Assembly: GCF_003351905.1 (NCBI RefSeq)
Contig: NZ_CP022339.1
Span: 600,001-632,000, forward strand
Direction: 5' to 3'
DNA length: 32,000 nucleotides
DNA from: Candidatus Saccharimonadota bacterium
GTDB lineage: Bacteria; Bacteroidota; Bacteroidia; Cytophagales; Amoebophilaceae
Shown in pieces: positions 9,970 to 32,000 of the stretch (position 1 is the stretch's first letter; each line of letters starts with the position of its first letter). Under the pieces are notes generated by a model, which had not been told where the DNA came from, did no database searches, and was given only the letters and a program-made list of their open reading frames with translations. A program made the translations under genes and the position numbers.

Positions 9970-11919
9970 ATGTGCAAAAATAATAAACAGTTCCGCTTCA
10001 TAGCGCCTATTTACATAGGAAGCCTATTATTATGGACTATATCCTGTAGTAGACATCTTCCTGTTACTGCAAGCCATTCTGGTGGTGAATGGATAGGAGG
10101 ATGTTGCCATCTGGATGATCCGTGTAGGGTAAAAGATCTAGGTAACCGTGTAGATCAGTTGGATTGGTCTAACGTTGATCTGTGTAAGGTTACAAACCAG
10201 AAGACTGTCTTTTGTGAAACAATAGACAGCTATGATATAGATCAGTTAAACGCACTGCTTACATACCTTAAACGTGACCCTGTAAAATACCCTTATGATA
10301 AGGTCATATATTTAATAGCTGGTTGTGGAAGCAAAAAAATAAAAGGGATGCGCATGTCTCTGTTGTTTAGGAGTGTGTTTAAACAGGATCTAGATATAAT
10401 AGATCTATTGTTTGAAACACTATCTTATTATGACTTAAACGCATGTGCGCAAGCTTTTTTCATACCATTTGGTGCTGGAAAATACACCATGTTGCATCAA
10501 GCGGTAGAATCATCCAACTTAGAAACAGTAATGTGCTTAATAGCGCATTATATCGAAACTAAAAAAAAGCAAGGGGTTGAGCCTTCTGTTCTATCAAATA
10601 GTCTAATAGAGGTTTTAAATATCAAAAATGCAATCAACGAAACACCACTGGATCTCGCATTTGGTACCTATCATTTAAGTTTTGTAGAAAATTCAGCTAT
10701 GATACAATATTTGGCAGCGTATGGGGATCCTTTGTCTCAAATAGACTTGGGGGATAAGTCTGCGTTGTATGCTGCTGCCAAGCGTGGTAATGGCACCCAG
10801 TTACCAATTATGATCGATGCCATAAGAGCCGGATCAAAAAAGATGTATGACCGAAAAGATATAGATATGGTGCGCAAGATTGTCAATTGCGTAGATAAAG
10901 ATGGCCGCACCTTGTTATATTATACGGTGCTAAACCGCAACTATGATGCAGTCGCGTACCTCATGGCACTAGGTGCCAACTGCACATGGTTCGATAAAAA
11001 TGGGGTCTCTCCGCTTTTTATAGCTATTGTGTATGGGGATCTACATATGGTACAATTGTTATTGGATAAAAAATTTCCCGCGAATGCATCGCTACAGGTG
11101 GATATAAATAACAAAGGTAGAGATGGGTTAACACCGCTGAATTTTTCCATTAAGCCTAAACAAAGTGTAGTGCTCATGCCAATACTGCTGTTGCGCAATA
11201 AGCATCGAAGATATAAGGTATTAAAAAATAATATGGATGATGGATGGGATCATGTTGCTATAGGGCATAGCAATGCTCAGATTGTTGCTGCTTTGTTGGA
11301 TGCTGGTGCGCATCCTTTGATACCCAATAATTTGGGTCAGACGCCCCTGCATCTAGCCGTGGAGTCGAACAGCGTATGTTTGGTAGAGCTGCTTCTAGAG
11401 GCTGGGAGCAGTGCGTTATTAAGAGATTGTAAAGGCTATACGCCTTTAGATATAGCCGTGCGGCAGATCCGTGTGCGCGCTTCGAAAGCTTATGATAAGG
11501 GCCATATGCTTAGTATAATTGTAAAAATGTTAGGTGCAGCTATACGTATAAAAAACGTTGGGGTAGATCAAAGTTGTTTGATGCGTATATACAAAGAGGT
11601 TATGTCGGCTTACCAACATGATAACCACAAACGTTCGCGGCATGTATGGGAAGCATCAATGGCGGATCTGTTCCAAAGATATGGCCTCTCAACGTACACC
11701 ACCACGCAACTTAAGGGTACAAAAAGGCGATGCGATGCGCATCCAGGGCTTATTGACCCTACTAAAAGGCGTAAGCGAAACAGTGTTCAGGCCTCTGATG
11801 GTTCATCAAGTGGACGTATGCAGGGAGCGAAGCGGCCTAAGCAATCTCAGTCAAATGCAGTTTCTTTTTTAGATATGCCCCATGCTGTAAGTGTGGACGG
11901 AACAGATCTACTGCCTTAG
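9970..11919 (+). CDS. Ankyrin-repeat protein with a lipoprotein-type signal peptide and a C-terminal basic, NLS-like tail
   Basis: 649 aa. Signal peptide plus Cys (IYIGSLLLWTISCS). ANK repeats include DGRTLLYYTVLNRNYDAVAYLMALGANC, NGVSPLFIAIVYGDLHMVQLLLD, GQTPLHLAVESNSVCLVELLLEAGSSA and KGYTPLDIAV. The tail reads TKRRCDAHPGLIDPTKRRKRN...GAKRPKQ. Confidence 0.85.
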   Translation: MCKNNKQFRFIAPIYIGSLLLWTISCSRHLPVTASHSGGEWIGGCCHLDDPCRVKDLGNRVDQLDWSNVDLCKVTNQKTVFCETIDSYDIDQLNALLTYLKRDPVKYPYDKVIYLIAGCGSKKIKGMRMSLLFRSVFKQDLDIIDLLFETLSYYDLNACAQAFFIPFGAGKYTMLHQAVESSNLETVMCLIAHYIETKKKQGVEPSVLSNSLIEVLNIKNAINETPLDLAFGTYHLSFVENSAMIQYLAAYGDPLSQIDLGDKSALYAAAKRGNGTQLPIMIDAIRAGSKKMYDRKDIDMVRKIVNCVDKDGRTLLYYTVLNRNYDAVAYLMALGANCTWFDKNGVSPLFIAIVYGDLHMVQLLLDKKFPANASLQVDINNKGRDGLTPLNFSIKPKQSVVLMPILLLRNKHRRYKVLKNNMDDGWDHVAIGHSNAQIVAALLDAGAHPLIPNNLGQTPLHLAVESNSVCLVELLLEAGSSALLRDCKGYTPLDIAVRQIRVRASKAYDKGHMLSIIVKMLGAAIRIKNVGVDQSCLMRIYKEVMSAYQHDNHKRSRHVWEASMADLFQRYGLSTYTTTQLKGTKRRCDAHPGLIDPTKRRKRNSVQASDGSSSGRMQGAKRPKQSQSNAVSFLDMPHAVSVDGTDLLP

Positions 11920-11996: not shown

Positions 11997-13088
11997 ATGC
12001 GTAACAATAGATTTTCCCGCTTAATAATAGTCATGTGTGTAGCATGTTTGTTATTTACTACTGCTTGTAGTAGGTATACTACATCTATTTTGGTTAACCA
12101 CAACGGGTATCTTGACTTGCAAGAAGCAGTATGTTATCATTCAGATGGTCAGCTAGAGGTGCAGTGTAAAACGAATGGCATGTGTCATGATCACTTTGAC
12201 TGGTCTACATCTAATTTGTGTAAAGTGTATGATAAGAAGACTACACTTTGTCAAGTAATAGAAATGGGTGATATAGATCTGTTGGATCGGTTGCTGGGCT
12301 ACATCGAGCGCGACCTTATAAAGTACCCTCCTGAAAAGGTAATATACTTAATAACTGGCTGTGGAAATGCAACAATAACAGGCATGAAAATACCTCTATT
12401 GACTCGGGCAGTGGTTAAAGGCGACCTGGATATACTAAAATTATTATTTGCAAAGCTGCATAATTATGTTGATTTTTTGGAACGTTCCCGTGGTGTTGAC
12501 GTAGAGGCATTATATCAGGAGGTTTTTTGCAGCAGGTTCGGTCCTGGAAAATTCACCCTTATCCAAGAAGCGGTGAACGCATGTGACTTAGCGCCAGAAA
12601 TGGTAGCCTACTTAATAGACACGTATACGTTTCTTATAACTGGCACTGCAAGGCAACAAAATCAAGTGGCAGCATGGAATCGTGTGTTCGGTTATCTGTT
12701 AGAATTTTTAAGTATAAAAAATAAAGCAGGCGCTACACCGTTGGATATGGCACGTGAATACTATGTTTATGAAATGCCAGAAAGTGCAGCTCCACTGACC
12801 TGTTTGGCACAGTATGGGGATCCTACGCATCCAACATACGTGAAGCAGAGAGGCATTCTTTTTGCTAAAGCCGCACTGGGCAATAGCAATAATTTTAGGG
12901 CTATTGTACCCAAGGCGTCACAACAAATACAGTGTTGGTGTGCATCCGTGCAGCACCTCATGGCATCACACGCTATGCACCTATGTGAGGGATCTCCGCT
13001 CGGTAGGCCTATTGCGTGGGGCGATGTACCCATAAATAGATGCAAGCAACAGTCTGATGATTCAGGTGGTAAAATCCAGGGTGGTTAA
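11997..13088 (+). CDS. Paralog of the N-terminal half of the preceding gene (lipoprotein signal plus shared domain), lacking the ANK/NLS C-terminal half
   Basis: 363 aa. Signal VMCVACLLFTTACS. Blocks are collinear with the upstream gene: DWS..LCKV, DID.L..LL.Y..RD..KYP..KVIYLI.GCG, GM...LL, DLDI..LLF, FG.GK.T....AV, L.IKN....TPLD.A, YGDP. Confidence 0.75.
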   Translation: MRNNRFSRLIIVMCVACLLFTTACSRYTTSILVNHNGYLDLQEAVCYHSDGQLEVQCKTNGMCHDHFDWSTSNLCKVYDKKTTLCQVIEMGDIDLLDRLLGYIERDLIKYPPEKVIYLITGCGNATITGMKIPLLTRAVVKGDLDILKLLFAKLHNYVDFLERSRGVDVEALYQEVFCSRFGPGKFTLIQEAVNACDLAPEMVAYLIDTYTFLITGTARQQNQVAAWNRVFGYLLEFLSIKNKAGATPLDMAREYYVYEMPESAAPLTCLAQYGDPTHPTYVKQRGILFAKAALGNSNNFRAIVPKASQQIQCWCASVQHLMASHAMHLCEGSPLGRPIAWGDVPINRCKQQSDDSGGKIQGG

Positions 13089-14633: not shown

Positions 14634-15989
14634 TTATTTCCCAATGCAGAATTTAGAGAAAATGTCTCCTAAAATCTCTTCTGTGGTAATCTCTCCTGTA
14701 ATTTCACCCAGTGCATATAGTGCCTGGTTGATATCTACAACCAGTAATTCATTGGATCGTTGTTGCGCAAGTCCTGCCATTACAGCTTCTAAAGCTGCTC
14801 TACTTTTTTGTAATCGATCGTAATGGCGTGCATTGACCACAATAGTGGCTAACCCATCGGCAGGTTTTTGTGTGACCAATTGCAAAAGCTGCCCTTTAAG
14901 TTGATTGAGCCCTTTACCAGTTTGTGCAGCCATGCACAAATAATCTTTAAAATCTTCTAGCGCAGCAGGTGGTGCAAGGTCCATTTTATTGCCAATTTTC
15001 AGTAGGGGTACCTCTCCTAAGGCAACCAGATCAGCCTCTGCTTGTTGAAAGGTCATATGGCATAGATCCACCAAGTAGAGTACGATACAAGCTTTGTTGA
15101 GTTGCGCTTTGGTCCGTTCGATGCCTATGGCTTCTATGGCATCCGAAGGCTTTTCGCGTAAACCAGCAGTATCTACAAACCTAAACCGTATGCCTCCTAA
15201 GTGTAATGTGCCCTCAATGGTGTCGCGCGTAGTACCTGCTATAGGCGAAACAATGGCCCGTTCTTCTTGTAATAATGCATTCAATAGGGTTGATTTGCCT
15301 ACATTGGGTCTGCCCACAATCACAACGGAAATACCTTGTTTAATCACGTTACCTAATTGAAAGCTATCGATCAGGCGTGTTAAAGTTTGCATCAGTTTAT
15401 CCGCTAATGTTTGTAATTCCTTGCGCTCTAAAAAGGTGACATCTTCTTCGGAAAAATCTAGTTCTAATGCCAACATTGCTGCAAAATGGCGCAAGTCTTT
15501 ACGTAATGCTTGTAAATCTGTCGAAAACCCCCCACGCATTTGATGAAGGGCCGTTTGGTGGGCCAACATGCTATCGGCTGCAATCAAATCTGCTACCGCT
15601 TCTGCTTGGGCTAAGTCAAAGCGGCCATTTAAAAAAGCCCTTTTGGTGAATTCACCCGGTTCAGCTATGCGCACACCTTGGTCTACCAACAGCTCTATTA
15701 ATTGTGTGACAATGAAAGGCGCACCATGGCAAGAGATTTCTACTGCCTCTTCCCTGGTAAAGGAATGGGGCGCAATAAAAATGGAAACTAGGACTTCATC
15801 AATTTGGGTATCCCCTTTTTTTAGGATGCCAAAATGAACCGTATGAGAGGCTTTTTGGGTCAAGTTACTGCCATGAAACAGCTGGTTCACGATGTTAATT
15901 ACACCCTTTCCAGATAGGCGCACGACTGCAATGGCGCTCATGCCTTGTGGCGTGGCGAGTGCCACAATAGGATCTTGGTTAGGATACAT
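14634..15989 (-). CDS. mnmE: tRNA modification GTPase MnmE (TrmE)
   Basis: 451 aa. N-terminal DPIVALATPQG.SAIAVVRLSG, G-domain GRPNVGKSTLLNAL...DTAG, and the invariant C-terminal FCIGK. Confidence 0.95.
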   Translation of the reverse strand: MYPNQDPIVALATPQGMSAIAVVRLSGKGVINIVNQLFHGSNLTQKASHTVHFGILKKGDTQIDEVLVSIFIAPHSFTREEAVEISCHGAPFIVTQLIELLVDQGVRIAEPGEFTKRAFLNGRFDLAQAEAVADLIAADSMLAHQTALHQMRGGFSTDLQALRKDLRHFAAMLALELDFSEEDVTFLERKELQTLADKLMQTLTRLIDSFQLGNVIKQGISVVIVGRPNVGKSTLLNALLQEERAIVSPIAGTTRDTIEGTLHLGGIRFRFVDTAGLREKPSDAIEAIGIERTKAQLNKACIVLYLVDLCHMTFQQAEADLVALGEVPLLKIGNKMDLAPPAALEDFKDYLCMAAQTGKGLNQLKGQLLQLVTQKPADGLATIVVNARHYDRLQKSRAALEAVMAGLAQQRSNELLVVDINQALYALGEITGEITTEEILGDIFSKFCIGK

Positions 15990-16740
15990 TTTCTTTTATA
16001 AATAAAGTTTCTGGATAACCTACCTCCACTAATGTTAAGCCGTGTGGTGGCATTAAGGTAAGTATAGGACGTGTGCTGGGTTTTTGTCGAATCAGTTGGG
16101 CTACTGTAGTGCTATCCATTTTACCAGTCGCTACTTTAAGGATGGTACCGACAATCGTTCGAACCATACCCCTTAAAAAGCGATTGGCTTGTATGTAAAA
16201 AACAAGCTTGTTGTCCATTGCTACCCAAGTAGCTTCTTTTATGTTGCAGATAAAACTCTTGGTTGCATCAGTTGTCTTGCTAAAAAATTCAAAATCAGCC
16301 TGTACAGAAAATAAACCAGCAATCTGGTTTAATAAGGCAAGCGGTGGCGTGTGGTGCAGCCAAACTGCGCGATCTCTATAAAAAGGATCTTTTTGTGTAA
16401 TGATGGTATAGGCATATCTACGATGGCATGCGTCGAAACGCGCATGTGCACCCTCTACTACTGGACGAATGGCCGTAATGCTGATATCAGATGGCAAAAT
16501 CCTATTGAGCCTATAGATCAAATGTAGCGGGTCTATAGGCGTTATGGAATCAAAATGGGCCACCTGTTGTGTGGCATGCACCCCTTTATCCGTTCGACTG
16601 CTGCCTGAGATCGCAATCGTCCTGGATAAGAGTTTACCAAGTGCTTCTTCGATCACTTGTTGTACAGCACATCCATTTTTTTGAATCTGCCAACCACTAT
16701 AGCCCTTGCCCAGATAGGATATATAGATGAAATAACGCAT
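15979..16740 (-). CDS. truA: tRNA pseudouridine(38-40) synthase TruA
   Basis: 253 aa. MRYFIYISYLGKGYSGWQIQ and catalytic GSSRTDKGVHA. It overlaps the mnmE start by 11 nt. Confidence 0.92.
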   Translation of the reverse strand: MRYFIYISYLGKGYSGWQIQKNGCAVQQVIEEALGKLLSRTIAISGSSRTDKGVHATQQVAHFDSITPIDPLHLIYRLNRILPSDISITAIRPVVEGAHARFDACHRRYAYTIITQKDPFYRDRAVWLHHTPPLALLNQIAGLFSVQADFEFFSKTTDATKSFICNIKEATWVAMDNKLVFYIQANRFLRGMVRTIVGTILKVATGKMDSTTVAQLIRQKPSTRPILTLMPPHGLTLVEVGYPETLFIKENVS

Positions 16741-29229: not shown

Positions 29230-29640
29230 AGGGTTACAACAACCATTTAGCTCCTGTAGATATAGGTGCAATGTGATCGTCCGCAATGCAACTTATCTGA
29301 CACGCACCTTATGGAGCCTAATATAATGCAGTTTGCTACAAACTTTTTGGATTGTTTCGATAATAACTGTAGATTAATGATGTTTTTTCTATTATGCTCT
29401 ATTGTTTTGTTTTTTGTTTATGATATCTTTTAAAACTGGTTTTGCCATTGCGATCGCATTATACATGATTACAATGAATTATTTGTTGTTTCATTACGTA
29501 CGGGACAAATACTTTCGTAAGTAAGGTTAAGATAGCATGTGTAGCTATGGTTTTGTGCACGTATGCCCTTTTTTCATCAGCGCTTGATTTTTGTATACTG
29601 TTTTATCAAGAAAGAAGTGCAATATAAATGTCTTATTGTT

Positions 29641-29870
29641 TGTTGCATTTTTCTATGTTATTTTATATTTATCTCCTAGTTTAGGGTATGGATATTACCA
29701 CAGCAAGGCGTTTAGTTAAGTCGTGTTTTAACGGTGTAGGGGCTACACCTATAGCTGAGAAAAGCATGAAACATAGGTATATTTTTATATTGTGGTTACT
29801 CCTATTAAGTAGTTGCCATACGGGCATTAGGCAAGGTGTGCATCCTGTGGATCCCTCTTTTACTGCGGGT
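29641..29870 (+). repeat. Copy 1 of the conserved upstream/5'UTR/signal-peptide cassette of the lipoprotein family
   Basis: It aligns by eye with 30301-30530 and 31781-32000. The block 29781-29870 is nearly identical to 30441-30530. Confidence 0.8.
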
Positions 29871-30143
29871 GCTGATGGTTTTGTTGGTGTTGAGGCGTGC
29901 GCAGAAAGACCTATTGATGCTTATCCACAAACTCATGGTGCTGTTTATTTGATGACTGCTCCTCGTCCTGTTACGCCCGCTGCTGCTGTTGTTGCCGCGG
30001 TGGATACTGCTATTACTCGTTGGGTTAGGTCTATCTCTACGTCTGTCTCTACGTTTATCTTTAGGCCTATCTCTCGTGCTATTAATTATCTTGTGCCTTT
30101 TGTGCCTTGTTATCGTGTGCGTGATCCTGCTGCTCAAGCCTAA
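29766..30143 (+). CDS. Small lipoprotein, family member 1 (MKHRYIFILWLLLLSSC...)
   Basis: Internal ATG 29766 is preferred over the track start at 29688 because it aligns with the starts of the paralogs. Lipobox LLSSC. The body is rich in NNT codons and contains a 12-nt tandem repeat. Confidence 0.65.
   Translation: MKHRYIFILWLLLLSSCHTGIRQGVHPVDPSFTAGADGFVGVEACAERPIDAYPQTHGAVYLMTAPRPVTPAAAVVAAVDTAITRWVRSISTSVSTFIFRPISRAINYLVPFVPCYRVRDPAAQA
30030..30077 (+). repeat. Four imperfect tandem 12-nt units (tctatctctacg / tctgtctctacg / tttatctttagg / cctatctctcgt)
   Basis: Read directly. The units are in frame and encode SIST-SVST-FIFR-PISR. Confidence 0.85.
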
Positions 30144-30300
30144 GCAAAATAGTTCTACTATGTGCTTCGTATAGATTGTTATATTTCCTTTTATACCTTT
30201 TTTTACTAGTTTTTCAAATATACTTTCTTCAACTCAACCCTTGCGCTGCAAAAGGTTTACCCACTAAAACTTTTGTACTATACCTTTATAATAAAATTTA

Positions 30301-30530
30301 TTTCCATCTATATAGTTGTATTTTTCTTATATTTTTTTAAATAATCTATTGATATGCAAATTTAGATAGTAAGCCATTGCGTAAAATTGTTTTTTAGCGG
30401 TGTAATGTTAAACGTATAACTCGGTATGGAACATGGACGCATTTTTATATTGTGGTTACTCCTATTAAGTGGTTGCCATACGGACATTAAGCAGGATGTG
30501 CATCCTGGGGATCCCTCTTTTGTTGCGGGT
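30301..30530 (+). repeat. Copy 2 of the conserved upstream/5'UTR/signal-peptide cassette
   Basis: See copy 1. Shared strings include ttttta(a/g)cggtgta, atttttatattgtggttactcctattaagt and gtgcatcctg.ggatccctctttt. Confidence 0.8.
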
Positions 30531-31637
30531 CCCATGTATCTTACGCATGCTTCTGGTGCTGCTGATTTTGATTCTTCTGTTGCTTCTGCTTTTATGACTG
30601 CTGCGGCTGCTCGTGTGGATGCGGCTGATGCGGATGCGGCTGCTCGTGCTGCGGCTGCTCGTGCCAATACTGCTCTTGCGCGTGCTTTCCCTCTTGATGG
30701 TGGTACGCCTGTTCGGGCTACTATTTCTGGGTCTGCTGTTTTTGCTTGTACTAATGCTGCCGCTGCTTATATGCGTGTTGCTGCATCTGCTGCTGCAGCA
30801 GCAGATGCGTATCTAGTTGCTGCGCGTGCTGCGTATGATGTTGGCCATCCGGTTGCTTATGCCCATGCTTCTGGCTATGCTGATGCATATACTTGTACTT
30901 CTGTTTCTGCTTTGACTGCTGCGGCGTCTTTTGATGCTGCTGCTAAGGCTGCTGCTGTTTCGCATGTGGTTGCTGCTAAGGCTGCTGTTGCTGTTTCGCA
31001 TGCCGGTGATCATGCTGCTGTTTTTGCTGCTGCTGCTAGGGCTGCTGCTACTAAGGCTGCTACCTATGCTACTTCTGTGGCTCGTTCTGCTAATTTGTCT
31101 ACTACAGTTGGCTGTATACGTATGGTTTCTGCTCATGTTGCTTCTATTGCTTCTGCTGCCCGTGCTGCTCATACGGCTCGTGTTGAGGCTGATTCTGCAA
31201 CTCATTCTGCAGATTGTGCTAGGGTTTATGCATATACTGCTCATGCTGCTGTTTCTGCTGCTGCTGCTATTTGTGCACATGCTGATGCTGTGTTTGCGAC
31301 TACTGATGCTGTATTTGCTTATGACCGTGTGGTTGAGGTTGCTGATGCACATATTAATAATGCACGTAAAATTGCTTCTATTAGGGTCCATAATGATACG
31401 GCTTCTGCTGCTTATGAGCGTGCCAGTTCTGCTTCTGTTGATGCTGCTACTGCTGCTGCTGGAGCTACTAAAGCAGCAGCAGCAGTGAGTCGTTTTGCTG
31501 CTGTAGCTGATGTTTCGTCTGTTGAGTCTTCTGTTTCGGATCTATTTGCTGCTGCTGCTCGTGCTGCTGCTGTTGTTGTTGACGCTATTCGTCTGCATGC
31601 TGCTACTGCTGCGAATGCTGTTGCTGCTGCCATATAA
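30426..31637 (+). CDS. Alanine-rich low-complexity lipoprotein, family member 2
   Basis: 403 aa. Signal MEHGRIFILWLLLLSGC with lipobox LLSGC. The mature part is dominated by Ala with Ser/Val/Asp/His/Tyr/Thr/Arg, and codons mostly end in T. The frame was chosen for continuity with the conserved signal peptide and the position-3 T periodicity. Confidence 0.65.
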   Translation: MEHGRIFILWLLLLSGCHTDIKQDVHPGDPSFVAGPMYLTHASGAADFDSSVASAFMTAAAARVDAADADAAARAAAARANTALARAFPLDGGTPVRATISGSAVFACTNAAAAYMRVAASAAAAADAYLVAARAAYDVGHPVAYAHASGYADAYTCTSVSALTAAASFDAAAKAAAVSHVVAAKAAVAVSHAGDHAAVFAAAARAAATKAATYATSVARSANLSTTVGCIRMVSAHVASIASAARAAHTARVEADSATHSADCARVYAYTAHAAVSAAAAICAHADAVFATTDAVFAYDRVVEVADAHINNARKIASIRVHNDTASAAYERASSASVDAATAAAGATKAAAAVSRFAAVADVSSVESSVSDLFAAAARAAAVVVDAIRLHAATAANAVAAAI

Positions 31638-31780
31638 AAGCAGCCTGTATAGATGCTGCTCCGGGAATGGTGGCTATTTAAGGATAGCCCCATTGTAAAA
31701 TTTACGTCATAAGGTGCTTTTTTTCAGTACATTCTATTGCATTACCCATGCATGCATAGCGTAATCGACTTCCATGCATC

Positions 31781-32000
31781 TGGTTGTATATTTCTATGTT
31801 TATTTATATAATAACTTATGGTATGAATAATAATTACCCAATGCCCAGGCAGGTTGCTTAAGGTGTTTTTAACGATGTAATGCAAAACGCATAGCTAAGG
31901 AAAACATGGAACATAAAAAAGTTTTTGTACTGTGGTTATTAACGTTAGGTGGATGTAATGCGCTGGTGAAGCACCATATGCATGCTGTAAGTGAATCCTG
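31781..32000 (+). repeat. Copy 3 (more diverged) of the conserved cassette, running off the window
   Basis: tttctatgtttatttatata, ggtatgaataataattaccc and gtgtttttaacgatgtaatg are collinear with copies 1 and 2. Confidence 0.7.
31906..32000 (+). CDS. Lipoprotein family member 3, 5' end only (MEHKKVFVLWLLTLGGCNALVKHHMHAVSES...)
   Basis: An ATG at 31906 lies in the same cassette context, with lipobox LTLGGC. The frame is open to the window end. Confidence 0.6.
   Translation, partial: MEHKKVFVLWLLTLGGCNALVKHHMHAVSES

Follow-up and report, generated by a model that had tools for sequence, protein, structure and literature searches.

The window analysed here, a 32,000-nt stretch of DNA, derives from Cardinium cSfur, the strain of the planthopper Sogatella furcifera, and ends in three co-oriented genes on the + strand with ATGs at positions 29766, 30426 and 31906. 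The first gene, LP1 (29766–30143), encodes a putative lipoprotein of 125 amino acids (aa), the second, LP2 (30426–31637), encodes an alanine-rich putative lipoprotein of 403 aa, and the third family member, LP3 (31906–32000), is cut by the end of the window after its first 31 codons. The LP3 body and everything 3' of position 32000 lie outside the window, and the copy number in cSfur is given as at least three. An earlier, sequence-only reading of this DNA had assigned lengths of 126, 403 and more than 31 aa to the three products, of which the first requires correction, and had placed the genes in an intracellular Bacteroidota symbiont, in agreement with LP1 being 100% identical to a protein annotated as hypothetical in the Cardinium endosymbiont of Sogatella furcifera. 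In public protein collections LP1 is represented as a 151-aa product with its start called at ATG 29688; alignment of the paralogues supports ATG 29766 as the likely true start. Of the three copies, LP1 alone appears in the public protein collections that were searched, LP2 and LP3 being absent from them.

The locus is chromosomal and is flanked by housekeeping genes. Its upstream neighbours in cSfur are ppx and a conserved small ORF of 34 codons, while the downstream neighbours, as judged by synteny with other strains, are predicted to be an atpC-like gene and a contractile-injection-system cluster. In strain TP and the Nabis strain, the DNA downstream of the locus contains atpC-like and injection-system genes and no recombinase.

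The shared 5' module

Each of the three ATGs is preceded by approximately 125 nt of homologous DNA (29642–29765, i.e. −124 to −1, for copy 1; 30302–30425 for copy 2; 31782–31905 for copy 3; all on the + strand). The homologous upstream DNA of 120–130 nt that had been described is thus real, although the likeness is uneven between pairs. When the 150 nt preceding each ATG were aligned locally, with z-scores derived from 1000 shuffles, the outcome was z=13 for copies 1 and 3, z=12 for copies 2 and 3 and z=4.3 for copies 1 and 2, while BLASTN aligned copy 3 with copy 1 at 69% identity over 164 nt (E 1.5e-9) and with copy 2 at 66% identity over 221 nt (E 1e-4). This block, which includes a conserved stretch at −45 to −12, is probably a promoter and leader. 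The 5' block matched no Rfam family above threshold and displayed no conserved RNA structure (−0.56 kcal/mol); additionally, a sigma-70 scan identified no site at homologous positions among the copies, and no convincing placement of a Bacteroidota −33/−7 promoter was found by eye.

The presence of lipoprotein signal peptides was assessed with a PROSITE PS51257-style rule, which demands [LVI][ASTVI][GAS]C with the cysteine at residue 15–35, an h-region without charged residues, and K/R in the n-region. LP1 (MKHRYIFILWLLLLSS before Cys17, the latter at 29814–29816), LP2 and LP3 (MEHKKVFVLWLLTLGG before the cysteine) pass this rule with Cys17, and the icPhiSpin1 homologue P0003 passes it with Cys19; by way of background, the rule accepts 5 of the 305 Met starts of the window, LP1 and LP2 among them. 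The LP proteins may be expressed, lipidated and located in the envelope, and the most likely course would be Sec-dependent export, lipidation at Cys17 and anchoring in the envelope. Surface lipoproteins of Bacteroidota carry an acidic export signal directly after the lipidated cysteine. In the present family the residues at this position (HTGIRQ, HTDIKQ, NALVKH and NTGVKH) contain, by inspection, no acidic motif of the K/Q-(D/E)2 type, and the surface location proposed in the earlier reading is accordingly not upheld.

The module continues into the coding region, where LP1 and LP2 share a 105-nt direct repeat (29766–29870 and 30426–30530) of 87% identity. The core of this repeat (29781–29870 and 30441–30530, both on the + strand) is 91% identical with 8 mismatches, in keeping with the block of about 90 nt noted previously, and encodes the signal-peptide h-region, the lipobox and the first 18 mature residues. 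As determined by BLASTP and hhalign, homology between LP1 and LP2 is confined to residues 1–35/36 and stops at codon 35–36, and the collapse of similarity after the block is therefore genuine. Within the 35-codon module, 9 of the 10 codons that differ between copies 1 and 2 do so nonsynonymously (by inspection), with an NG86 omega of 1.0. A DNA pattern for the signal peptide, derived from the three copies (which match it by construction), had no further match in the 32 kb with up to three mismatches allowed (0.14 expected by chance).

Because the coding tract is 91% identical yet the upstream regions of copies 1 and 2 are barely alignable, recombination or gene conversion appears to have acted at the module, as previously suspected. 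The core would then represent the likely conversion or crossover tract, the shared module acting as a substrate for homologous recombination and a conversion tract of 90–105 nt keeping copies 1 and 2 alike.

Homologues in other Cardinium strains

A phmmer search with LP2 against 1.84 billion representative proteins returned three matches: a fragment from TP (6e-20), LP1 (through its cassette only) and P0003 (3e-4). Alanine-rich candidates overwhelmed a word-indexed search for LP2 homologues, and no family member had a match in Pfam, NCBIfam or PDB sequence searches. Related genomes hold further members, in TP and icPhiSpin1. Exact-pattern scans for the cassette were empty in GTDB representative genomes and JGI metagenomes (the first pattern being too strict even for TP), and plasmid searches and a cassette alignment search likewise found no match.

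In icPhiSpin1, the P0003/P0004 coding region lies between lpxA and oppA, a locus differing from that of cSfur, and its products are collinear with LP2 through motifs such as TVGCIR, VYAYTAHAA, AYDRV, IHxDxAxAA and RLxAAxAAxAV. The ORFs are intact in both cases (403 codons for LP2 and 427 codons for icPhiSpin1). The icPhiSpin1 homologue furthermore shares the proximal 5' block, the best match to its upstream region being the copy-2 proximal block (−34 to −8; z=4.9, reached by 3 of 1000 shuffles), and possesses a lipobox in which LTLGG precedes the cysteine; the N-terminus of LP3 looks most like that of this homologue (LTLGGCN..VKH). The LP1 body was found only in cSfur, with no homologue in TP or at other loci. 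While the bodies of LP1 and LP2 show no homology to each other, in line with the earlier reading, its description of them as unrelated low-complexity regions holds only in part, since the LP2 body is a conserved domain and that of LP1 is not of low complexity.

The mite strain TP carries an ortholog of LP2 that is frameshifted. This gene is a chimera in which the copy-1 upstream block (approximately 85–88% identical to the region before the TP ortholog) is followed by a cassette and an LP2-type body, while the LP1 body and the LP1–LP2 spacer are missing, and it adds to the evidence for recombination at the cassette. Two separate TP-type assemblies contain identical cassette frameshifts (T5 to T4 followed by +4), which enclose a stop codon, and differ from one another by a 1-nt indel near the 3' end and by a GCT indel; in-frame indels are also present between LP2 and TP. 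We infer that a crossover between the copy-1 and copy-2 cassettes could have generated the single chimeric TP gene, which would have been frameshifted afterwards. An insertion in cSfur, in place of a deletion in TP, is a possible alternative history. In the Nabis strain no gene of the family lies at the locus, and the family accordingly ranges from none (Nabis) through one pseudogene (TP) to at least three copies (cSfur). Its absence at Nabis and its pseudogene state in TP show the family to be dispensable.

Codon usage, divergence and reading frame

LP2 consists of 35% alanine, and GCT represents 75% of its Ala codons. The frequency of T at codon position 3 (T3) is 67–76% in LP1, LP2 (76%), the TP body and the icPhiSpin1 gene, as opposed to 34–39% in all neighbours. 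LP1 thus displays the NNT codon style of the family even though its body is not of low complexity, and its T3 periodicity remains in phase with the signal-peptide frame until the stop codon and is lost beyond it. NNY-coded residues dominate LP2, with 25 D versus 5 E and 17 H versus 1 Q.

Omega was 1.1 for LP2 versus TP and 1.16 for LP2 versus icPhiSpin1, compared with 0.12–0.26 for flanking genes. Positive selection was rejected as the explanation for omega values above 1, since dS is deflated by the constraint on T3 positions and the TP gene is a pseudogene. Structure prediction, which had been suggested for the bodies, proved unproductive: the AlphaFold model of LP2 is all-helical with a pLDDT of 36, that of LP1 has a pLDDT of 57, and both are too poor for a fold search. 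Omega values of about 1 and models of such low confidence are equally expected of non-functional DNA.

It is possible, though in our opinion rather unlikely, that these genes are decaying remnants of (GCT)n-type trinucleotide expansion on an old lipoprotein leader, open because NNT codons never stop and drifting neutrally toward loss. This explanation would accommodate the omega of about 1 in both body and cassette, the observation that divergence between LP2 and TP is lowest at codon position 3 (22% at position 1, 20% at position 2 and 13% at position 3), and a composition that fits residues whose codons lie one or two steps from GCT (A, V, S, D, T, R and H), with its excess of NNY-coded residues. 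The pseudogene in TP, the lack of a gene in the Nabis strain, the absence of LP2 and LP3 from public protein sets and the lack of a fold or of a Pfam, NCBIfam or PDB match are compatible with it as well. Conversely, two divergent lineages retain an intact ORF, lipobox and proximal 5' block at different loci, and the non-alanine motifs are conserved and collinear. Furthermore, the T3 bias still amounts to 72–76% in LP2 and the icPhiSpin1 gene although 38% of the aligned codons differ at position 3, and therefore looks like a maintained equilibrium and not a fading relic. ORF length is in itself weak evidence of coding, because NNT periodicity removes in-frame stop codons. Four indels of non-3n length arose quickly in TP, with none observed in LP2 or P0003, and the survival of intact ORFs of 403 and 427 codons in two divergent lineages, beside these indels in TP, therefore argues for selection on frame.

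We consider it probable, with considerable reserve, that the genes constitute a small, Cardinium-specific family of fast-evolving, alanine-rich putative lipoproteins with a recombining 5' module. As far as the sequence searches reach, the family is small, fast-evolving, alanine-rich and found only in Cardinium, and this orphan lipoprotein family is new. A member gene combines a 5' module (approximately 125 nt upstream, a lipobox-bearing signal peptide of type II and the first 18 or so mature residues) with a body written nearly throughout in NNT codons. The architecture recognised earlier, a constant module joined to differing bodies, is borne out as that of a paralogous family. The amino-acid sequence would be loosely constrained, while the reading frame would be kept in cSfur and icPhiSpin1.

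Relation to known lipoprotein systems

The sequence-only reading had likened the locus to the Vlp/Vsa/Vsp systems, as a possible variable surface-lipoprotein (contingency) locus. In such a phase- or antigen-variable locus, frequent switching or reshuffling of the copies would proceed via the shared cassette or homopolymer slippage. A contingency function is not supported, and we regard it as improbable. In Mycoplasma, the Vsp family of M. bovis, the Vpma family of M. agalactiae and the Vsa family of M. pulmonis are clustered paralogues with a conserved 5' UTR and signal peptide and no likeness past the N-terminus (PMC2268961). A tyrosine recombinase (xer1, mbr, hvsR) is encoded next to these genes; recombination sites lie within the 5' UTR, there is only one promoter, inversions occur, and the coding regions contain repeated units (PMC2268961). 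The Cardinium copies are similarly clustered, with a common 5' region and signal peptide and signs of recombination in the 5' region. In contrast to the Mycoplasma loci, each copy has its own upstream block, all copies are co-oriented, and no inverted repeats surround the 5' blocks. Additionally, no recombinase was found among 23 ORFs scanned with Pfam or NCBIfam in the 32 kb, a scan that left out two ORFs of at least 100 aa (5301–5609 and 15979–16740), and the bodies contain no true in-frame tandem repeats, the TRF arrays being weak (2–4 copies, 70–90% match, scores of at most 68). A Pfam search revealed no sequence similarity to the Vsp/Vpma/Vsa lipoproteins.

Slippage may appear plausible, since the TP frameshift lies exactly in a T-run of the signal-peptide region and codons 4–6 of the icPhiSpin1 gene contain an A9 tract, and the strain-dependent copy number, the fast amino-acid change and the GCT indel between the TP-type assemblies would also suit a variable locus. 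However, homopolymer tracts in cSfur do not exceed 7 nt, those of at least 6 nt lie at non-homologous positions in the three copies, and, unlike in the M. hyorhinis Vlp promoter-tract switch, no hypermutable tract occupies a fixed promoter position. In the two pairs of closely related assemblies compared (L001 with L004, L003 with L005), the tracts have the same lengths, and the within-gene excess of differences between near-identical strains is weak (5 events in 840 nt versus approximately 1.7 expected for TP, and none for icPhiSpin1). The lack of an acidic surface-export motif after the cysteine, by inspection, further weakens a surface-antigen role, as does the arthropod host, since arthropods possess no adaptive immunity.

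The closest analogue of the Cardinium gene architecture is the Erp family of Borrelia, in which leader peptides are held in common, mature parts are divergent and recombination at the leader is documented. The Erp (OspE/F-related) paralogues of Borrelia burgdorferi also share promoter sequences, the 'upstream homology box' or UHB (PMC7002432). The Erp genes, however, reside on cp32 prophage plasmids of a spirochete and their products are experimentally surface-exposed and bind host factors, whereas the Cardinium genes are chromosomal, belong to a Bacteroidota endosymbiont and are known from sequence; with regard to homology to UHB/Erp, no Pfam or NCBIfam match was obtained. The mycobacterial PE_PGRS proteins likewise combine a constant N-terminal export module with a fast-evolving, Gly/Ala-rich low-complexity body prone to in-frame indels, a plan that the Cardinium family resembles in its constant export module and fast-evolving alanine-rich body, but their PE domain is ESX-exported and is not a lipoprotein signal, their genes are of high GC and contain genuine repeats, and the two families are not homologous. 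Borrelia Vlp/VlsE are alanine-rich helical lipoproteins, predicted or known to be all-alpha; LP2 is similarly an alanine-rich putative lipoprotein predicted to be all-alpha, although its pLDDT of 36 is too poor to compare folds. Unlike Vlp/VlsE, the Cardinium family has no cassette-donor system, and no Pfam match to Borrelia lipoprotein families was found at E <= 1.

Cardinium manipulates the reproduction of many arthropods, and to our knowledge almost nothing is known of its envelope proteins. A bolder proposal, which we consider doubtful, is that the family forms a host-interface coat of this cytoplasmic-incompatibility-inducing endosymbiont, self-diversified by 5'-cassette recombination and an NNT/GCT 'codon dialect'. 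If this were true, the dialect would keep frame-preserving mutations readable and fuel in-frame indels, and such a self-diversifying lipoprotein gene design would be new to Bacteroidota and arthropod symbionts. As for the favoured reading of a Cardinium-specific family of putative lipoproteins, comparative studies that use public protein sets miss LP2 and LP3 because two of the three copies are absent there. The extreme NNT usage, kept across divergent strains while amino acids drift, represents an unusual nucleotide-level constraint that needs explanation. Finally, synteny with TP and the Nabis strain places the locus next to the contractile injection system cluster, and its lineage-specific nature, rapid change and strain-variable copy number make the family a candidate for host-specific interaction.

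Three genes with a common 5' module

The three putative lipoprotein genes at the 3' end of the window, all on the + strand, comprise LP1 (29766–30143, 125 aa), LP2 (30426–31637, 403 aa) and LP3, which begins at 31906 and is open for 31 codons up to the window end; the length previously given for LP2 (403 aa) was upheld, while that for LP1 (126 aa) required correction. LP1 and LP2 start with a 105-nt direct repeat (29766–29870 and 30426–30530; 87% identity) containing a core of 91% identity (29781–29870 and 30441–30530), and the similarity of their products is confined to residues 1–35/36 as assessed by BLASTP and hhalign. Upstream homology, scored by local alignment of the 150 nt preceding each ATG against 1000 shuffles, was genuine but uneven, with z-values of 13 (copies 1 and 3), 12 (copies 2 and 3) and 4.3 (copies 1 and 2). 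A degenerate signal-peptide DNA pattern, which was derived from the three copies and thus matches them by construction, was found nowhere else in the 32 kb with up to three mismatches allowed (0.14 chance matches expected). All three N-termini satisfy a PROSITE-style lipobox rule (Cys17), which only 5 of the 305 Met starts in the window pass, including those of LP1 and LP2. The repeat, the upstream z-values and the lipobox rule thereby bear out the shared module and the lipoprotein signals that the sequence-only reading had proposed for these co-oriented genes. Two adjacent ORFs elsewhere in the window also satisfy the rule: a 649-aa ankyrin-repeat ORF (9970–11919, +; LLLWTIS-C) and a 363-aa ORF with no Pfam match (11997–13088, +; LLFTTA-C), which have 40 nt in common (10710–10749 and 12803–12842, 75% identity). 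A lipoprotein signal on an ankyrin-repeat protein is unusual.

The sequence of LP1 matches, at 100% identity, a public 'hypothetical protein' (151 aa) from strain cSfur, the Cardinium endosymbiont of Sogatella furcifera. This public version begins at ATG 29688, 26 residues ahead of the signal peptide, which would thus be buried, and it fails the lipobox rule; when five 5' regions of the family are aligned, the start falls at ATG 29766. LP2 and LP3 are absent from a 15-billion-protein collection and are evidently missing from public protein sets. The proximal 5' block of LP1 contains a perfect 7-bp hairpin (GGTGTAG-GGG-CTACACC, 29726–29751), which is weaker in Cardinium TP and absent in copies 2 and 3 and in Cardinium icPhiSpin1; covariation support for it was not found, and the 5' block matched no Rfam family and showed no conserved RNA fold. 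Structure models were of low confidence: LP2 (pLDDT 36) was predicted to be all-helical, and LP1 (pLDDT 57) to have a single long helix joined to its signal helix by a disordered linker.

Homologues in other Cardinium and evidence for recombination at the cassette

An HMMER pass with LP2 over 1.84 billion representative proteins returned three matches, i.e. P0002, a piece of a TP gene (6e-20), LP1, via the cassette (signal peptide and first mature residues) only, and the 427-aa P0003 (3e-4) from a Logan assembly. P0003 has a near-identical relative, P0004, from OZ034918.1, which is Cardinium icPhiSpin1 of the beetle Philonthus spinipes (PMC12342168); both genes sit between lpxA and oppA, a locus other than that of LP1–LP3. 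The icPhiSpin1 gene has a lipobox resembling that of LP3 (LTLGG-C), also carries the proximal 5' block TTTTAGCTGTGTAACGCTAAACGTATA, and its upstream region best matches that of copy 2 (z = 4.9). Its product aligns collinearly with LP2 via non-alanine motifs (LP2/icPhiSpin1: TVGCIR/TIDCIR and VYAYTAHAA/VYAHVAHAA; also AYDRV, IHxDxAxAA and the C-terminal RLxAAxAAxAV). Because of this collinearity, the LP2 body (the remainder of the mature protein) is regarded as a conserved family domain rather than unrelated filler. No additional copies were detected in ~122 kb of Cardinium DNA by an nhmmer profile of the upstream block and cassette, nor was the family found in JGI metagenomes, plasmids or the PDB.

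Cardinium TP, a strain name that agrees with the mite Tyrophagus putrescentiae of the Cardinium literature, has one gene only between ppx and an atpC-like gene. The region upstream of this gene is copy-1-like (85% over 267 nt; 88% for the ppx–LP1 spacer), its body is LP2-like, and the interval holds no counterpart of the LP1 body or the LP1–LP2 spacer; by its sequence, the gene is what a crossover between cassettes 1 and 2 would be expected to yield. In icPhiSpin1, the proximal block ahead of the LP2-like body is copy-2-like, which suggests that this combination is the older one and that a deletion occurred in TP, the alternative history being an insertion in cSfur. Within cSfur, the coding tract of copies 1 and 2 (91%) is far closer than their upstream regions, and its codon changes were by inspection 1 synonymous versus 9 nonsynonymous (omega 1.0). 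Since synonymous differences are nearly absent and the tract outscores the upstream regions, recent gene conversion would fit better than long-term purifying selection. Recombination at the cassette, as originally proposed, is accordingly corroborated by the TP chimera and the tract identity.

The TP gene itself is, judged from its reading frame, a pseudogene: T5 is shortened to T4 in the signal-peptide region, followed by a stop codon, the frame is regained by a +4 insertion 90 nt later, and it shifts again, by -2, towards the 3' end. The cassette frameshifts are common to two separate TP-type assemblies; the differences between these are a GCT indel and, close to the 3' end, a single 1-nt indel. 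The Cardinium strain of Nabis limbatus has no gene at the LP1–LP3 position.

Codon style and integrity of the reading frames

The bodies called unrelated share a nucleotide-level signature, as T occupies the third codon position (T3) in 67% (LP1), 76% (LP2), 68% (TP) and 72–74% (icPhiSpin1 gene) of codons versus 34–39% in all neighbouring genes. Across LP1, this periodicity keeps its phase throughout cassette and body and is gone beyond the stop codon. LP2 is 35% Ala, with GCT representing 75% of Ala codons, and NNY-encoded residues prevail (D 25 versus E 5; H 17 versus Q 1). High T3 looks like a maintained state. Its maintenance could be due to continuing GCT-type slippage, proposed because of in-frame indels relative to TP (including 3, 24, 48, 51 and 51 nt) and the GCT indel between the TP-type assemblies, selection being the other possibility. 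The composition would be accounted for if a (GCT)n expansion were decaying neutrally under GC-to-AT pressure; however, T3 is still 72–76% in two lineages that differ in the third position of 38% of aligned codons. Divergence between cSfur and TP was 22%, 20% and 13% at codon positions 1, 2 and 3, and NG86 omega was 1.1 (LP2 versus TP) and 1.16 (LP2 versus icPhiSpin1), compared to 0.12–0.26 in flanking genes; positive selection was rejected since constrained T3 deflates dS and the TP gene is a pseudogene. The LP2 interior also contains a perfect 26-nt palindrome (30783–30808, GCATCTGCTGCTGC/GCAGCAGCAGATGC) and a second inverted pair (31447–31485; GCT-run/AGC-run, 11 nt apart). Patches of GCA codons occur at both sites in an otherwise GCT-coded gene and look like template-switch (quasi-palindrome) mutations.

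ORF length alone is weak proof of coding, because NNT codons cannot be stops. Three lines of evidence nevertheless favour functional genes in cSfur and icPhiSpin1: two divergent lineages have each kept their ORF (403 and 427 codons) unbroken and in phase, lipobox included; TP has rapidly gathered non-3n indels; and the 5' block, itself non-coding, has stayed conserved between paralogues with only 38% protein identity.

Genomic setting and relation to known systems

The locus has housekeeping neighbours (lpdA, enoyl-CoA hydratase, rpsA, relA/spoT-like, hflX, prmC, an OMP-like ORF and ppx), the ppx-like protein being 96% identical to that of Cardinium sp. TP and 83% to that of the Nabis strain. 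In these strains, an atpC-like gene and a contractile-injection-system cluster (Pvc16_N, sheath, gp19-like, CIS tube; L001 12615–19504 and L004 9787–16676 in TP-type contigs, L002 11908–18667 in the Nabis strain) directly follow the lipoprotein locus (TP) or the empty site (Nabis strain). By synteny, the cSfur array probably abuts such a cluster just past the window. Between ppx and LP1 lies a 34-codon ORF (29420–29524, +; MISFKTGFAIAIALYMITMNYLLFHYVRDKYFRK) with one hydrophobic helix, identical in TP and with one residue changed in the Nabis strain despite a ppx dS of 0.79 between cSfur and that strain; no gene is called at its position on L004. The ORF is probably a genuine gene for a small membrane protein. 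Elsewhere, an ankyrin-repeat ORF (2428–3441, +) has a Thr/Lys/Pro-rich, low-complexity N-terminal half with imperfect 21–30-nt repeats (TTTKKPS-like), and an ORF at 977–1735 (-) has a match to the mitochondrial carrier family of eukaryotes (Mito_carr, E 1.5e-9) and may be a carrier gene acquired from a host.

The suggestion of a contingency locus found no evidence. No recombinase was present among the 23 ORFs run through Pfam or NCBIfam, a set excluding two ORFs of at least 100 aa (5301–5609 and 15979–16740). No inverted repeats flank the 5' blocks, and TRF revealed weak short arrays only. Homopolymers reach 7 nt at most, at non-homologous positions in the three copies, and the icPhiSpin1 A9 and TP T4 tracts are unchanged in length between paired assemblies. 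An acidic motif after the lipidated Cys is a rule for surface export; none was seen by inspection. Mycoplasma systems are defined (PMC2268961) by conservation of the 5' UTR and signal peptide, a recombinase encoded next to the genes, 5' UTR recombination sites, one promoter combined with inversions, and coding units that are repeated; LP1–LP3 have only the first of these in common with them. In architecture, LP1–LP3 come nearest to the Borrelia 'upstream homology box' (Erp) family (PMC7002432). The Cardinium literature examined makes no mention of such a family, which works like shared-leader lipoprotein families and belongs to none. On present sequence grounds, LP1–LP3 represent a new family of putative lipoproteins, very small and restricted to Cardinium, characterised by a recombining 5' module, extreme NNT codons, fast sequence turnover and strain-specific gain and loss.
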